A stretch of DNA of 64,000 nucleotides from an uncultured Gemmatimonadales bacterium (GTDB taxonomy: Bacteria; Gemmatimonadota; Gemmatimonadetes; Gemmatimonadales; Gemmatimonadaceae): positions 128,001 to 192,000 of the forward strand of contig CAWKNZ010000001.1 of NCBI GenBank assembly GCA_963851265.1. Reading direction: 5' to 3'. Under the pieces are notes generated by a model. The model ran no database searches. It was not told where the DNA came from and worked only from the letters and a program-made list of their open reading frames with translations. Of this stretch, positions 46,937-53,924 are shown piece by piece. Made by a program: the position numbers and the translations under genes. The first letter of the stretch is position 1. Each line of letters opens with the position of its first letter.

Positions 46937-48859
46937 TCACGCGGTGAACCACGACGCCCACCCGGAGCTCCCGTCCCACGACGTCGCGTAGACCAGCCCG
47001 TCCGAGCCGACCGTGAACAGGTCCAGGTGCGCCGTGAGGCGCGAGATCGCCGCGACCGTTCCGCCGGGCTCTCCCACGCCGCCCGCCACCCAGAACCACC
47101 CGGCCCAGCCCGTGGCCGCGTCCCACCACGTGCTGTAGACGCGGTTGTCGGTGCCGATCGTGAACACGTCGAGGTGGTTGGTGAAGCGCGACACCGCCGT
47201 GACCTGCGCGCCCGGCGACGCCACGCCGCCCGAGACCTGGAACCACCCCGCCGCCCACCCGGTGTGTACGTCCCACCAGGTCGACATCGTGGCGCCGTTC
47301 GCGGCCGTCGTGAACAGGTCGAGGTGGTCCACGAAGCGCACGACCGCGTTCACCACCGAGTCGGGGCGGCACACGACGCCGTTGAGCGGGAACCACGCGT
47401 GCCAGCCGCTCGCCGCGTCCCACCAGCAGCTGTAGACGCGCTCGTCCGTGCCCACCGTGAACAGGTCGAGGTGGGTGGGGAAGCGTGCGACGGCGGTCAC
47501 GGTGGCGCCGGGCGCGGCCACGCCGCCCATCACCTGGAACCAGCCGGCCCAGCCCGTGCTCGCGTCCCACCACGTCGACACGGTGGCGCCGTCGGCCGCC
47601 GTCGTGAACAGGTCGAGGTGGTTGATGTTGCGCGAGACGACGTTCACCGTCGACCCGGGGCGGCACGCCATCGTGCCGAGCGGGAACCACGGGTGCCACC
47701 CGCTCGACGCGTCCCACCAGCAGCTGTAGACGCGGTTGTCGGTGCCGACGGTGAACAGGTCGAGGTGGTTGGCGAAGCGCGACACGGAGGTGACCGGCGA
47801 GCCCGCGCCGCCGGGCGACGCGACGCCGCCCTCGACCTGGAACCAGTTGGCCCACCCGAAGCTCGCGTCCCACCAGTCCGACATCGTGCGCCCGTCGTTG
47901 GCGACGGCGAACACGTCGAGGTGCGTGGGCACGCGCGCGACCGCGCTCATCGGCGTGCGCGGTCGTGCGGCGAGCGTCGCGCGCGGCGGCCGGAGCACGC
48001 AGGCGTTGGCGCTGTTCGACCACTCGGTCTGGATCGTGAACCCGCCGAGGTTCGTCACCGACCCGTTGCAGATGTCGCCGATCTCGTTGCCGGTGGCGCT
48101 GTCCCACCACGCGTTGAGCGCGGGGTCGGTGATGGCCTCGCACAGCTCGTGGCTGCTCACCTTGGTGAGCGTGTTGAGGATCGTCCCGAACGAGCACCCG
48201 CCGCACGTCACGAACGGCTCGACGGCGTAGTAGACCGCGCCGGTCGGGGCGTTGAAGTGGCCGTGGTAGCCGCAGTACTGCACGCACGACGACTGGGTGC
48301 CCTGGGTCGAGACGACGCCCGGGGGCAGGTACACGAAGTAGAGCGTGTTGGGCGTGACCGCCGGCACGGTCCCGGCCGCGATCCACCCCGCGAGGGCCGC
48401 CTGAATCTGCCCGTCGCTCACCGTGCCGCTCCCGCCGCCGGGCTCCGACGTGGTGATCGTGCGCGAGCCGATGTGGGTGCCGTGGCCGATCGGCGCGCCG
48501 GGGAGGCTGTACTCGGCGAGCTGGTCGATGAGCGAGCTGGTGAGGATGAAGTTGAAGAAGGCGTCCACCTGACCGCGCAGCGGCGCCTGCGCCGGCTGCG
48601 TCCACGCCGCGCCCCAGTAGACGGTGACGACCTGCACCGCCGACAGCACCGGGCCGCCGTGGTACGTGAGGTGGGGCGGCGGCGCGGCCGGCGCCGGGGC
48701 GCCGGCGGCCGGAGTGCCTAACGTTAGGCCCTTGTCGTCCGCCGGCGGCGTGTGCAGCGGGACGATGTTGCGCGGCCCCACCGGCTGCGCGCCCGCGAGT
48801 TGGGGCGTGTACGAGGCGAGGGGCGCGCCCTCTCGCGTGCTGCCGTGTTCGGGTGTCAT
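46937..48859 (-). CDS. Phi-1/EXORDIUM-like domain fused to 7 fucose-lectin-type (PLL/AAL-like) propeller repeats
   Basis: LTYHGGPVL...YWG...YCGYH...HELCEAITDP..NAWWD...EIGDIC; seven ~48-aa repeats HLD(L/V)F....D.....WWD...GW..WF. Confidence 0.8.
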   Translation of the reverse strand: MTPEHGSTREGAPLASYTPQLAGAQPVGPRNIVPLHTPPADDKGLTLGTPAAGAPAPAAPPPHLTYHGGPVLSAVQVVTVYWGAAWTQPAQAPLRGQVDAFFNFILTSSLIDQLAEYSLPGAPIGHGTHIGSRTITTSEPGGGSGTVSDGQIQAALAGWIAAGTVPAVTPNTLYFVYLPPGVVSTQGTQSSCVQYCGYHGHFNAPTGAVYYAVEPFVTCGGCSFGTILNTLTKVSSHELCEAITDPALNAWWDSATGNEIGDICNGSVTNLGGFTIQTEWSNSANACVLRPPRATLAARPRTPMSAVARVPTHLDVFAVANDGRTMSDWWDASFGWANWFQVEGGVASPGGAGSPVTSVSRFANHLDLFTVGTDNRVYSCWWDASSGWHPWFPLGTMACRPGSTVNVVSRNINHLDLFTTAADGATVSTWWDASTGWAGWFQVMGGVAAPGATVTAVARFPTHLDLFTVGTDERVYSCWWDAASGWHAWFPLNGVVCRPDSVVNAVVRFVDHLDLFTTAANGATMSTWWDVHTGWAAGWFQVSGGVASPGAQVTAVSRFTNHLDVFTIGTDNRVYSTWWDAATGWAGWFWVAGGVGEPGGTVAAISRLTAHLDLFTVGSDGLVYATSWDGSSGWASWFTA

Positions 48860-49121
48860 GAGGCCCTCCGGGGCGCTCGCCCGGACCATTCCGGGCGCGC
48901 CCTCAATCGTTTCACGACGGCAATAAGTCAAGCGCGCCGGGAGGGCGACGCGCGACGTGCGGCTTCCGGGGCGTAGCACCCTCGCTGCCCGCCCGCCGCT
49001 GCGGCGTGGCGCGCGTGTCAGGGCCCGCCGGGCGCCTGGACGGCGCCGCGCCGCCGTCGTGCCGACCACGCCCGGGCGGACGCTTGCGCGCAGGCCCGGC
49101 CGTCGCCACATTGGCCGGACC

Positions 49122-49223
49122 ATGCGCCGCCCGACCGCCGCCCAGTATTACTTTAGCAGCTATCGCTACTTCGGCTTCCCGCCGGGGACAGCGGTGCTGT
49201 GCGCGCGCTTGAGCAGGCAGTAG
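49122..49223 (+). CDS. Tyr/Phe-rich attenuator leader peptide (33 aa)
   Basis: MRRPTAAQYYFSSYRYFGFPPGTAVLCARLSRQ: 4 Tyr + 3 Phe within 11 codons, directly upstream of the Phe/Tyr operon. Confidence 0.85.
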   Translation: MRRPTAAQYYFSSYRYFGFPPGTAVLCARLSRQ

Positions 49224-49250
49224 CTCCAAAGCGACCTCGCGATACACGCC

Positions 49251-49282
49251 AGCGGCCCCCGAATCTCGGGGGCCGCTTTTTT
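49251..49282 (+). terminator. Intrinsic terminator (attenuator)
   Basis: agcggcccccga-atc-tcgggggccgct followed by a T-run, about 22 nt before the aroF ATG. Confidence 0.92.
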
Positions 49283-49304
49283 GTTGTCCCCTGCCGCTAC
49301 CACC

Positions 49305-50284
<980 letters not shown>

Positions 50285-50288
<4 letters not shown>

Positions 50289-51235
50289 GCACCGCCGCGA
50301 CCGGGGGCGCGCCGGCGGTCGCGCTCCGCCCGCCTACCGCGGCAGCCGCTCCGCGTGTGGCGTTCCAGGGCGAACACGGTGCGTACAGCGAGGAGGCCGT
50401 CGCGGCGTGGTGGGGCGGCGCGGCGGTCGCCGTGCCGGCGCGCGAGTGCGCCGACGTCGCGCGCCTGGTCGAGTCGGGCGCGGTCGACCACGGAATGCTC
50501 GCCATCGAGAACACGCTCGCCGGTAGCGTGCTCGCCGCCTACGACGCACTCGCGACGGCCGCGGGCGTGACGGTCGTGGGCGAGGTGGTGTTGCCCATCC
50601 ACCACTGCGTGCTCGCCCCGCCGGGGGCCGACCTCGCGTCGCTCTCCACGGTGGAAAGTCACCCGGTGGCTCTCGCGCAGTGCGGGCGCTTTCTCGCCGA
50701 CCACCCGCACGTCGACGCCCGCGCCGCCTACGACACCGCCGGCGCGGCGCGGGCGGTGGCCGCGCGCGGCGACCCCCGCTGCGCGGCAATCGCCGGTCAC
50801 GGGGCGGCCGAGCGGTTCGGCCTCGCGGTGCTCGCGGCCAACGTCGAGGACCGGCCCGACAACCAGACGCGCTTTCTCGTGCTCGCCCCTGCATCTGCCG
50901 GGCGGATCGTGAACGTGGCAGCGGCGCTGCCCGAGGGCGCGCCCGCGCGCACCGCGCTCATCGCCGTCACCGACAACGTGCCGGGCGCACTCCTGCGCCT
51001 CCTCGCCCCGCTCGCGGCGGCCGCGCTCAACGTGAGCAAGATCGAGTCGCGCCCCACCGGCGTGCCGTGGGCCTACCGCTTCTTCCTCGAATTCGAGCAC
51101 GCGGCCGCCGATCCGCGCGTGGACGACGCGCTCGCCGCCGTGCGCGGCGCGTCGCGCGAACTCCGCACGCTCGGCACCTTCGCGCGCGCCCACCCGGCCG
51201 ATGCCTCGCCAACCACCCGGGGGCACGATGGCTGA
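50285..51235 (+). CDS. pheA: Prephenate dehydratase with ACT domain
   Basis: [38 protein letters not shown]. Confidence 0.95.
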
Positions 51236-52199
51236 ACGCGCCGTGGGAATCGTGGGCCTCGGGTTGATCGGGGGCTCGCTGGCCCGGGCGCTCCTCGCGC
51301 GCGGCGTGCGCGTACTGGGGACCGCGCACGACGCCGAGGACCGTCGGCTCGCGGCGCGGTGCGGGGTGGAGGTCACGGGCGGCGTGGCCGAACTCGCGGC
51401 CGCGATGCCCGCCGCCGGTGCGCCGGCCAGCCATCCCACGAGACCACCGGCGCCCAGCGTGGTGGTGCTCGCCGTCCCGCTCCCGGCGCTCGGGGCGGCG
51501 GCGGGCGCGCTGCTCGGTTCGCTCGCGCCCGACGCGGTCGTGCTGCACGCCGCCGGTCTGCAGCGGCCGGCGGCCACCGGGCTCGACGCCGTCGCGAGGG
51601 CGCGCGTGATTGGGACGCACCCACTGGCGGGGTCGCACGAGGCCGGGTTCGCGGCGTCGCGCGCGGATCTGTTCGCGGGGGCGGCGGTGTGGGCGGAGGA
51701 GCGCGCGGGCGACGCGGCGCGCGCCTGCCTCGAATGGCTGTGGGCGTGCGTGGGCGCGCGCGCCGTCGAGTACCGGAGCGCCGAATCGCACGACGCGGCG
51801 ATGGCCTGGGTCAGCCACCTGCCGCAACTCGCGTCGACCGCGCTCGCGGCGGCGCTCGACACCGCCGGCATGCCGGCCACGCTCGGCGGACCCGGCCTGC
51901 GCGACGCGACCCGCCTCGCCGCGAGCCCGTTCCCCCTCTGGCAGGACGTGCTGCGCGCGGCTCCCCCCGAGACCGACGCGGCGCTCGCTCGGCTGGCCGA
52001 CACGATCGCGCAGCTCCGCGCCGCGCTCGCCCGCGGCGACGGCGACGCGCTGGCCGCGCTGTGGGAGCGGGCCGGCAACTGGCGAACCGGGCGCACACCG
52101 GTGCCCCACGACCGGGCCAACGACGACGGTCCGGACCACCCTGATTCGGAGGAGACCGCGATGCACGAGGCGGGAATGGAGGGTGCCGCGCGATGGTGA
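51228..52199 (+). CDS. tyrA: Prephenate/arogenate dehydrogenase
   Basis: IVGLGLIGGSLA, HPLAGS, HD..MAWVSHLP, GPGLRDATRLAAS. Confidence 0.92.
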   Translation: MAERAVGIVGLGLIGGSLARALLARGVRVLGTAHDAEDRRLAARCGVEVTGGVAELAAAMPAAGAPASHPTRPPAPSVVVLAVPLPALGAAAGALLGSLAPDAVVLHAAGLQRPAATGLDAVARARVIGTHPLAGSHEAGFAASRADLFAGAAVWAEERAGDAARACLEWLWACVGARAVEYRSAESHDAAMAWVSHLPQLASTALAAALDTAGMPATLGGPGLRDATRLAASPFPLWQDVLRAAPPETDAALARLADTIAQLRAALARGDGDALAALWERAGNWRTGRTPVPHDRANDDGPDHPDSEETAMHEAGMEGAARW

Positions 52200-52591
52200 A
52201 CGCGACGGGTCTGGCGGTACGCGCGATTCGCGGCGCGACCGCCGTCGACGTCGACGAGCCCGAGGCGGTGAAGGCCGCGACGCGCGAACTCCTCGCGTGC
52301 ATCGTCGAACGCAACGGCGTGGGTCCGGACGACCTGATCAGCGCCGTGTTCACGGTCACCGGCGACCTCACGAGCACCTTCCCCGCACACGCCGCGCGCG
52401 AGATGGGGTGGACCGACGTGCCGCTGCTCTGCGCGCTCGAGATCCCGGTGCCCGGCGCGCTCGCGCGCTGCGTGCGCGTCCTGCTCCACGTCATGAGCGA
52501 CCGGCCGCGCGCGGCCGTTCAGCACGTCTACCTCCGCGGCGCGGTCGTGCTCCGCCCCGACCTCACCGCCGTGGCCGCGCATGACGCCTGA
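52193..52591 (+). CDS. aroH: Chorismate mutase, AroH class
   Basis: VRAIRGAT, FPAHAAR, EIPVPGAL.RCVR, HVYLRGA..LRPD. Confidence 0.95.
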   Translation: MVNATGLAVRAIRGATAVDVDEPEAVKAATRELLACIVERNGVGPDDLISAVFTVTGDLTSTFPAHAAREMGWTDVPLLCALEIPVPGALARCVRVLLHVMSDRPRAAVQHVYLRGAVVLRPDLTAVAAHDA

Positions 52592-53924
52592 CCTCGCCTG
52601 GGCACCGTCATCGCGCGTGCCACCCGTCGTGCCGCCCGTGGCATCATCCGTCCCGCCGATTCTCGCCGAGGGGCAGGACGCCGGCGCGCGCTGCGCCGAT
52701 CGGGCCCGCCAGCTCGGCGTCGCCGGGGCATCGGGCGCAACCGACGTGCTGGCTGCGGCCCGCGCGCTCGAAGCGGCGGGTCGGCGCATCGTGCACCTCG
52801 AGGTGGGCGAGCCCGACGCCCCGACGCCGCCGCACATCGTCGAGGCCGGGATGCGTGCCCTGCGCGACGGGCACACGCGTTACGGGCCGCCGGCCGGCAT
52901 CCCCGAGCTGCGCGCGGCGGCGGCCGACGCGCTCCGCGCGCGCGGCGCGCCGGCCGACGCCGCGCGCGTGGTGGTCGCGCCGGGCGCGCGCGCCGTGCTG
53001 TTCACGACGCTGCTGGCCGCGGTCCGCCCCGGCGACGAGGTGCTCGTCCCCGACCCGGGCTACGGCACCTACGGCGCGGTGGCCGAGTTCGCCGGCGGGC
53101 GCGCCGTGCGCTACGCGCTCGACGCGGCGCGCGGGTTCGCGATCGACGTCGCCGCGATCGCGGCGCGCGTCACGCCACGCACGCGCGTCCTCGTCGTCAA
53201 CGCGCCCCACAACCCGACGGGCGCGGTGGCCGACGCGGCCGCCTGGGAGGCGGTCGCCGAACTCGCCTGCCGGCACGACCTGCTCGTCGTCTCGGACGAG
53301 ATCTACTCCCGGCACGTCTACACCGACGCGCGGGACCCCATCGCGCCGGACGGCATCGGGAGCGACGCGTCGGGCGCCGTCGGTCACCCGAGCATCGCCG
53401 CCGCGCCGGAGATGGCCGGGCGCACGGTCGTGGTGGACGGCTTTTCCAAGGCGTACGCAATGACGGGGTGGCGGCTCGGCTACGGCCTCCTGCCGGCGGG
53501 GCTCGTCGCGCCGGTCACCGCCCTCCTCACGCAGAGCGCGTCGTGCACGGCGACGTTCGTGCAGCACGCGGGGGTCGCGGCGCTCACGGGGCCGCAGGAC
53601 GCGGTGGCCGCGCAGACGGCGGAGTTTCGGCGGCGGCGCGACTGGTTGGTCGACGCGTTGAACCGGATCGACGGCGTGGCGTGCGCGACGCCCGGCGGCG
53701 CGTTCTACGTGTTTCCCCGCGTCGAGGCCGCACTCGCGGGTACGGGGCAGACGGAGGGTACGCTCGCGCGGCGCCTGCTCGACGCGCACGGCGTGGCGTG
53801 CGTACCGGGGACGGCGTTCGGGCCGGCCGGGACGGGGCATCTGCGCTTCGCGTACACGGCACCGTTCGGCGATCTCGAGATCGCGGTCGAGGCACTGCGG
53901 GCGTCTGTAAGCCAGGGTTCGTAG
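52581..53924 (+). CDS. Class I/II PLP aminotransferase (aspartate/prephenate/aromatic type)
   Basis: GEPD, NAPHNPTG, SDEIY, GFSKAYAMTGWRLG, GAFYVFP. Confidence 0.93.
   Translation: MTPDLAWAPSSRVPPVVPPVASSVPPILAEGQDAGARCADRARQLGVAGASGATDVLAAARALEAAGRRIVHLEVGEPDAPTPPHIVEAGMRALRDGHTRYGPPAGIPELRAAAADALRARGAPADAARVVVAPGARAVLFTTLLAAVRPGDEVLVPDPGYGTYGAVAEFAGGRAVRYALDAARGFAIDVAAIAARVTPRTRVLVVNAPHNPTGAVADAAAWEAVAELACRHDLLVVSDEIYSRHVYTDARDPIAPDGIGSDASGAVGHPSIAAAPEMAGRTVVVDGFSKAYAMTGWRLGYGLLPAGLVAPVTALLTQSASCTATFVQHAGVAALTGPQDAVAAQTAEFRRRRDWLVDALNRIDGVACATPGGAFYVFPRVEAALAGTGQTEGTLARRLLDAHGVACVPGTAFGPAGTGHLRFAYTAPFGDLEIAVEALRASVSQGS

Follow-up and report, generated by a model that had tools for sequence, protein, structure and literature searches.

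A Putative Leader-Peptide Attenuator Rich in Tyr and Phe Codons Precedes an aroF-pheA-tyrA Operon in a Gemmatimonad and Its Relatives

INTRODUCTION

The pheL, trpL, and pheM leaders of E. coli are each devoted to a single amino acid and are led by a Shine-Dalgarno (SD) sequence. An attenuator at aroR-aroF of C. glutamicum was reportedly described by Neshat et al. in 2014. In the available sections of PMC11802643, aroR, with Phe-Tyr-Phe before aroF, is stated to respond to Phe and not to Tyr, and one of three sources (PMC11802643, PMC4046766, PMC7356990) describes its control as translational and as exerted by both Phe and Tyr. Attenuators have also been predicted before aroA(I-beta)/tyrA (plus pheA) operons of Thermus thermophilus, Thermoanaerobacter, and Bacteroides thetaiotaomicron, as given in the accessible part of Table 7 of PMC1173090, which draws on Merino's database. 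Leader ORFs that begin at the transcript start are known from the available text of several papers, which describe the ilvB leader of C. diphtheriae (start mapped; PMC5784534), the ilvL, leuL1, and trpL2 leaders of Streptomyces lividans (starts mapped; PMC8079986), and the mycobacterial poly-Cys leader ORFs (10.1101/834739).

In a search that covered few subscription journals and no supplements, we found no literature on leader-peptide attenuation in Gemmatimonadota. Papers on gemmatimonad leaderless genes yielded none on attenuation by title or start of the abstract, and the accessible parts of PMC2659441, PMC12125101, and PMC2965389 contain nothing on Gemmatimonadota leaders. The Korolev 2016 leader-gene lists (PMC4833913, in the part available), Merino's database, and subscription comparative papers could list a Gemmatimonas aroF leader.

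Here, we analyze a 64,000-nucleotide stretch of an uncultured Gemmatimonadales bacterium (the window; GCA_963851265.1, contig CAWKNZ010000001.1, positions 128,001 to 192,000). An initial annotation, made from the letters of the window, had proposed that a leader peptide reads both Tyr-tRNA and Phe-tRNA ahead of an aromatic amino acid operon. That annotation omitted the probable leaderless start, the Trp codons found in over half of the relatives, and the absent N-terminal regulatory domain of aroF, all of which are taken up below. Coordinates are those of the window, and features lie on the forward strand unless stated otherwise.

RESULTS

The operon and its leader ORF

The leader and terminator stand where the initial annotation had placed them, directly before aroF-pheA-tyrA-aroH-aminotransferase. 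The first gene, aroF (49305 to 50288), encodes a type I-beta DAHP synthase that scores above the cutoffs of PRK08673 and TIGR01361. It is followed by pheA (50285 to 51235), a prephenate dehydratase with an ACT domain, and tyrA (51228 to 52199), a prephenate/arogenate dehydrogenase, both assigned by domain search and both the sole copies found in a genome that is 94% complete, to which the single-copy statement applies. Next come aroH (52193 to 52591), a class I chorismate mutase (TIGR01796, 153 bits against a cutoff of 82), and a class I/II aminotransferase (52581 to 53924; PF00155) that overlaps aroH and, judged from this context, likely supplies the operon with its aromatic transaminase. The genes downstream of the aroF start overlap one another. 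On the opposite strand, positions 46937 to 48856 encode a divergent protein of 639 amino acids whose C-terminal part matches a beta-propeller lectin domain (NF052348, 256 bits against a cutoff of 200); its N-terminal domain matches no assigned family and contains SHELCEAITDP, which we take to resemble a zinc-peptidase motif.

The 33-codon ORF with 4 Tyr and 3 Phe in 11 codons reported earlier is present from an ATG at 49122 to a TAG at 49223. Its aromatic codons, Y9, Y10, F11, Y14, Y16, F17, and F19, occupy 49146 to 49178, and three of the seven end in U. The same interval bears out the AT-rich patch, with a GC content of 42% versus 74% for the whole window. Among 11,204 short ATG ORFs of 12 to 45 amino acids in the whole genome, three have at least 5 Tyr/Phe residues in 11 codons, and this leader ORF alone has at least 6. 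A genome-wide scan for the combined pattern of -35 box, short ORF, and terminator matched this locus only, and thus revealed no second attenuator of like architecture. Inspection by eye of the 400 nucleotides 5' of the open frames of both chorismate-binding genes and of the second aroF, which stopped short of where the trp gene cluster begins, likewise revealed no attenuator. The peptide matched no family in Pfam or NCBIfam. Clustered end-product codons, a mark of the classical class of attenuators, are thus found here as 4 Tyr and 3 Phe codons ahead of pheA/tyrA.

Distribution among relatives

Matches to this aroF (E ≤ 1e-88) were present in 149 of the 251 genomes of a family-level search. 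We gathered 155 loci (55 plus 100 of 105 further listed places), of which one without upstream DNA was dropped, and defined a same-clade set of 136 loci at ≥60% identity, window included, to which a few genomes contribute two or three. The best-matching titled aroF relatives mostly carry a Gemmatimonadota label, at 65 to 76% identity. With a leader defined as an aromatic-rich ORF of 12 to 45 codons upstream of aroF, the expectation of Y/F-rich leaders in related genomes was borne out at 110 of the 136 loci (109 of 135 without the window), 94 of which also have the terminator. At distant paralogue loci, weak leader matches occurred in 3 of 18 and a terminator in none of the 18. Structural analyses below use 93 loci, i.e., the 94 with leader and terminator less one whose hairpin call fell inside the ORF.

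The 26 loci that lack a leader ORF comprise 16 aroF copies in methyltransferase clusters, 3 with short upstream DNA, 2 behind pheA, 3 in which a -35 box is followed by a weaker leader-like ORF, and 2 that are unexplained. With downstream operons typed by tblastn, the leader was found at none of the 16 aroF copies before methyltransferase-cluster genes, which occupy three places on the aroF tree. These copies (L005, L009, L046, L047, L078, L080, L101, L128, L130, L134, L139, L142, L143, L147, L152, and L155) likely serve a chorismate-derived specialized pathway, to judge from their gene neighborhoods; several sit directly behind a gene whose sequence resembles pyruvate phosphate dikinase. Three of four same-genus genomes (G001, G002, and G003; 97, 78, and 85% complete) gave no match to the aroF clade at E ≤ 1e-88, only the paralogue, and the attenuated operon looks patchy even inside the genus. 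Among neighboring genes, one resembling isopropylmalate synthase (leuA) adjoins the leader-aroF unit in a single subclade (L074, L084, and L108), and an SRP RNA (RF00169) lies just past the CM2/tyrA-type operon (CM2, chorismate mutase II) at L036:3529-3624 and L055:3506-3601 (minus strand).

Elsewhere in the phylum, where the loci were the best-scoring ones and not a random sample, leader, -35 box, and terminator occurred together in 9 of 17 loci of family f2, 3 of 4 of f4, 2 of 4 of f8, and 3 of 18 of f7, and in none of the loci from f6 (3), f10 (1), and f11 (1). Seven further f7 matches, about 700 nucleotides upstream (L259, L264, L266, L271, L275, L277, and L278), lack a terminator and were judged false. 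In other phyla, Phe/Tyr/Trp-rich short ORFs with terminator hairpins were seen by eye before type I-beta aroF at 8 of 80 loci, 440 to 890 nucleotides 5' of the aroF match: L207, L209, L222, L227, and L229 in Planctomycetota, L162 and L171 in Chloroflexota, and L172 in Clostridia. The L162 ORF has six consecutive Tyr codons, and both L162 and L172 have a purine-rich, SD-like sequence ahead of the start. A Solirubrobacterales/Actinomycetota variant, at 13 of the 80 loci (L197, L198, L204, L208, L213, L215, L216, L223, L224, L231, L232, L234, and L235), is an ORF of 22 to 33 codons with a near-invariant tail, Tyr-x-x-Trp-Arg-Phe-(Ser/Ile)-stop. Its aromatic codons are at the stop, 12 of the 13 are without a hairpin plus T-run, and it may use Rho-dependent or translational control.

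A predicted promoter and leaderless start

A -35 box (TTGCGC, 49084 to 49089) is predicted from the sequence and from a motif position kept in relatives, and a -10 box (CACATT, 49107 to 49112) from its 17-nucleotide spacing and from A/T-rich columns in relatives. In 100 of 110 loci, the motif TTGAC/TTGCR/TTTAC starts 33 to 41 nucleotides 5' of the leader start; the other approximately 90 positions scanned had 33 matches in all. It peaks at -35/-36 (58 of 110 loci), with a further 39 of 110 at -37 to -39, which fits a 5' untranslated region of 0 to 4 nucleotides, and in the 100 loci A/T-rich, -10-like columns follow 23 to 29 nucleotides past the -35 start. A strict sigma-70 scan at the locus called no promoter. 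The transcription start of the window is predicted at about 49119, which would give a 3-nucleotide 5' untranslated region and a leaderless leader ORF. A match of SD strength precedes the leader in only 6 of 110 loci. The phylum seems SD poor, with a value of 22 for Gemmatimonadetes in a table of PMC10783764 that we take, its header not being in view, as the share of SD-led genes, so the absence of an SD sequence from 104 of 110 leaders is weak evidence for a leaderless start.

Terminator and the predicted antiterminator and protector structures

The perfect 12-bp hairpin and T-run pointed out before aroF form an intrinsic terminator at 49251 to 49282, with a stem (49251 to 49277) that has 10 GC pairs and a 3-nucleotide loop. 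It is the only terminator-like site in 48700 to 49500, where shuffles give 0.4, and its T-run ends only about 22 nucleotides from the aroF start. In alignment A1, which was built with MAFFT, blind to structure, from 48 leaders hand-picked for spread among the 93, the terminator pairing holds in 97.1% of cells and shows compensatory changes.

Complementarity between the left arm of the terminator and an upstream segment, which the initial annotation had put forward as an antiterminator, was found between 49183 to 49196 (region 2) and 49247 to 49261, with a duplex energy of -19.0 kcal/mol. The corresponding columns of A1 (99 to 106 with 197 to 204) are paired in 90.6% of 382 cells, and both partners have changed at 6 of 8 pairs and in 45 cells; none of 500 shuffles scored as high, and slid registers reached at most 53%. 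In 83 of 93 loci, the duplex formed within the locus was stronger than the median of the cross-locus duplexes. A swap test between 38 sister pairs gave 15 own-better, 14 swap-better, and 9 ties (P = 1.0), the large differences being on the own-better side. The main compensatory switch, from one terminator class to another, requires a single change when placed on the aroF tree, and independent-pair tests on this switch and on the shift in operon type had one pair available. Since the terminator-class switch and the Tyr/Phe shift described below each map to one tree change, each counts as one event and not many, and we make no claim of repeated coevolution.

A predicted 1:2 protector hairpin spans 49156 to 49201, pairing 49156 to 49175 with 49181 to 49201, and is the minimum free energy (MFE) fold of transcripts that end at 49230 or 49250. 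Its duplex energy is -26.7 kcal/mol, and the probability that region 2 is paired upstream is 0.84 in the window and exceeds 0.5 in 64 of 93 loci. A different 1:2 helix had been suggested, which would join the control codons to the stop region of the leader. The complementarity exists as sequence and is weak (-6.5 and -8.5 kcal/mol; -11.2 kcal/mol together), and the helix itself was rejected, with about 2e-5 expected pairs in the folding ensemble of the window. It has ≥3 expected pairs in 20 of the 93 loci; for pairing of the control codons with region 2, the figure is 45 of 93 loci.

Folding with a ribosome mask

In a mask model, the ribosome was given a footprint of its A site plus 12 nucleotides, and nascent transcripts stopped before the 3' arm of the terminator. 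The mutually exclusive folds that had been anticipated appear in this model, with the antiterminator favored only when the ribosome is on the aromatic codons. In the window, its probability was 0.49 to 0.62 with a stall at codons 9 to 17; farther on, F19 gave 0.14, codon 22 gave 0.0, codon 28 gave 0.29, and the stop gave 0.15. Averaged over the 93 loci, the probability was 0.85 at the first aromatic codon, 0.86 at a middle one, and 0.58 at the last, and it fell to 0.27, 0.16, and 0.13 two, four, and six codons past the last and to 0.00 at the stop. Shuffling of region 2 gave a mean of 0.54, and the real value was higher in 88 of 93 loci. The median geometry over the same loci places the first aromatic codon at 8, the last at 15, the start of region 2 at 9 nucleotides past the last aromatic codon, and the stem 27 nucleotides past the stop. 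In the model, F19 lies so near region 2 that it probably cannot serve for control. An antiterminator that is exclusive with the terminator and has its 5' strand just past the ribosome footprint, as in the classical class, is present computationally. The off state without a ribosome is not clean in the model, the antiterminator then having a probability of 0.47 in the window and a mean of 0.52 over the 93 loci.

Equilibrium folding of the whole leader was rejected as a display of the switch. In the finished transcript of the window, the terminator has a probability of 0.97 in every ribosome state tested, and the switch therefore has to be kinetic. That same dominance at equilibrium would suit a constitutive terminator, one that closes a small RNA or a small aromatic peptide gene while aroF is driven elsewhere or by fixed leakage. 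We hold this to be very improbable: the T-run lies only about 22 nucleotides from the aroF start, leader peptides of relatives are conserved in composition and not in sequence beyond it, region 2 covaries with the terminator arm, and no aroF copy in a methyltransferase cluster has the element.

A control of aroF translation by start-site sequestration, or a trans-acting factor or tRNA on the leader RNA (TRAP- or T-box-like), seems hardly less improbable. The full-length MFE structure does pair region 2 with 49282 to 49294, in the stretch from the T-run to aroF, and read-through RNA may thus be subject to a further, translational control. The conserved parts, in contrast, are the ORF, the aromatic cluster, and the hairpin plus T-run, and no Rfam leader family reaches its gathering score here or at 20 other leader loci. 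The Phe_leader family (RF01859) gave 18.9 bits in the window against the 55 needed (E = 1.8), in the terminator part only, and the T-box model was absent from the four Rfam matches up to E = 10 in 48800 to 49500. Taken with the mask model, the evidence strongly favors the element at 49122 to 49282 being a real, ribosome-dependent transcription attenuator.

Amino acids that the leader may read

The 110 leaders differ in their aromatic residues. Tyr, Phe, and Trp occur together in 56, Tyr and Phe in 39 (the window included), Tyr only in 10, Tyr and Trp in 3, and Phe and Trp in 2, so that Trp codons are found in 61. The ratio Phe/(Phe + Tyr) is 0.53 before pheA-type operons (54 loci) versus 0.23 before CM2/tyrA-type operons (37 loci); the operon type changes once on the aroF tree, and the Tyr/Phe shift rides with that one change. 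U-ending control codons are enriched relative to aroF of the same loci (TAT, 0.37 versus 0.16; TTT, 0.57 versus 0.19), and U-ending His, Asn, and Asp codons in the leaders are lower, not higher, than in aroF. The genome has only tRNA-Phe(GAA) and tRNA-Tyr(GUA), so U-ending Tyr and Phe codons are read by wobble. We infer from the codon usage that wobble reading may sensitize stalling, and RNA-structure constraints could explain the U-ending bias instead.

From its codons, the leader of the window probably senses both Tyr and Phe. The same attenuator could be effectively single-input, with a shortage of Tyr alone (four of the six well-placed codons) or of Phe alone causing the stall, as would accord with the report, in the available text of PMC11802643, that aroR with Phe-Tyr-Phe answers Phe alone, with the 10 of 110 leaders that have only Tyr, and with the bad placement of F19 in the mask model. 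We consider a single input unlikely, at perhaps one chance among several, in view of the retention of both Tyr and Phe in 95 of 110 leaders, the enrichment of TAT and TTT alike, the position of F11 and F17 inside the effective zone, and the fact that the operon carries the sole pheA and tyrA found.

DISCUSSION

The events at this locus might run as follows. RNA polymerase would start about 3 nucleotides before the leader AUG, and a ribosome would load at the 5' end of the transcript. A shortage of charged Tyr- or Phe-tRNA would stall the ribosome at codons 9 to 17, where it would mask region 1 and leave 49183 to 49196 free to pair with 49247 to 49261 before the 3' arm of the terminator exists. 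The antiterminator, once formed, would allow read-through into aroF. If neither charged tRNA is lacking, translation would carry the ribosome across region 2 to the stop, 27 nucleotides before the stem, and the terminator would form. In a transcript that is not translated, region 2 would be sequestered in the 1:2 hairpin, leaving the operon off by default.

The enzyme at the head of the operon may offer one reason for such control. In DAHP synthase, the ferredoxin-like domain PF18152 has an allosteric role. The aroF product of the window matches PF00793 only and lacks this N-terminal domain, unlike the long-form relatives and unlike the second aroF copy of the genome, which carries it. Attenuation likely takes the place of allosteric feedback, which so short a DAHP synthase would lack. 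By the distance from terminator to catalytic core, 56 of the 93 leader loci have a long aroF and 37 a short one, so the leader is not only a feedback substitute.

A broader reading is attractive, and we offer it tentatively, at somewhat less than even confidence. Throughout Gemmatimonadota, this DAHP synthase clade may ancestrally be regulated by a leaderless, multivalent aromatic attenuator that reads Tyr, Phe, and, in over half of the lineages, Trp, with rare wobble-read codons as sensitizers. Its codon mix would have been retuned with operon content, Tyr rich before CM/tyrA and Phe/Trp rich before pheA. The attenuator would have disappeared upon the transfer of aroF to methyltransferase clusters, and in the domain-less enzyme it would replace allosteric feedback. 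Quite apart from this reading, the attenuator gives the little-studied Gemmatimonadota a well-supported mechanism for sensing amino acids, and the predicted start would imply that leaderless initiation is coupled to transcription in the phylum. The roughly 110 natural variants, which differ in their Tyr:Phe:Trp mix, provide a test of whether mixed leaders read several tRNAs, and the leader set can serve as the seed for a missing Rfam family. If the look-alikes in Planctomycetota, Chloroflexota, Clostridia, and Thermoleophilia are true, they would point to a regulator family that is widespread and has no model in Rfam.

The principle is that of textbook attenuation, and the surprise is moderate. 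The initial annotation compared the architecture with enterobacterial attenuators, and the likeness to trpL and pheL stands; the class, however, occurs outside enterobacteria too, and a DAHP synthase gene preceded by a mixed Phe/Tyr leader has already been published. As in pheL-pheA, trpL-trpE, and pheM-pheST of E. coli (in the available text of PMC11802643), an ORF of cognate codons is followed just after by an antiterminator strand and then by an intrinsic terminator. For the operons of PMC1173090, which likewise have a terminator and an antiterminator predicted ahead of them, the word "leader" is absent from the main text, and the accessible part of Table 7 includes no Gemmatimonadota. The leaderless attenuators of Actinomycetota, as far as the available texts describe them, likewise have their ORF at the first bases of the transcript; they serve other amino acids and operons, and their starts are mapped whereas ours is predicted. 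The closest parallel we compared, by its partial description, is aroR-aroF, in which a mixed Phe/Tyr leader also stands directly before a DAHP synthase operon and stalling raises transcription. The gemmatimonad leader differs from that description in its seven aromatic codons, in the Trp codons frequent among its relatives, in the type I-beta enzyme, in the whole Phe/Tyr branch that lies downstream, and in the phylum. The value of the locus lies in that phylum, in the predicted leaderless start, and in a large natural series of codon mixes.
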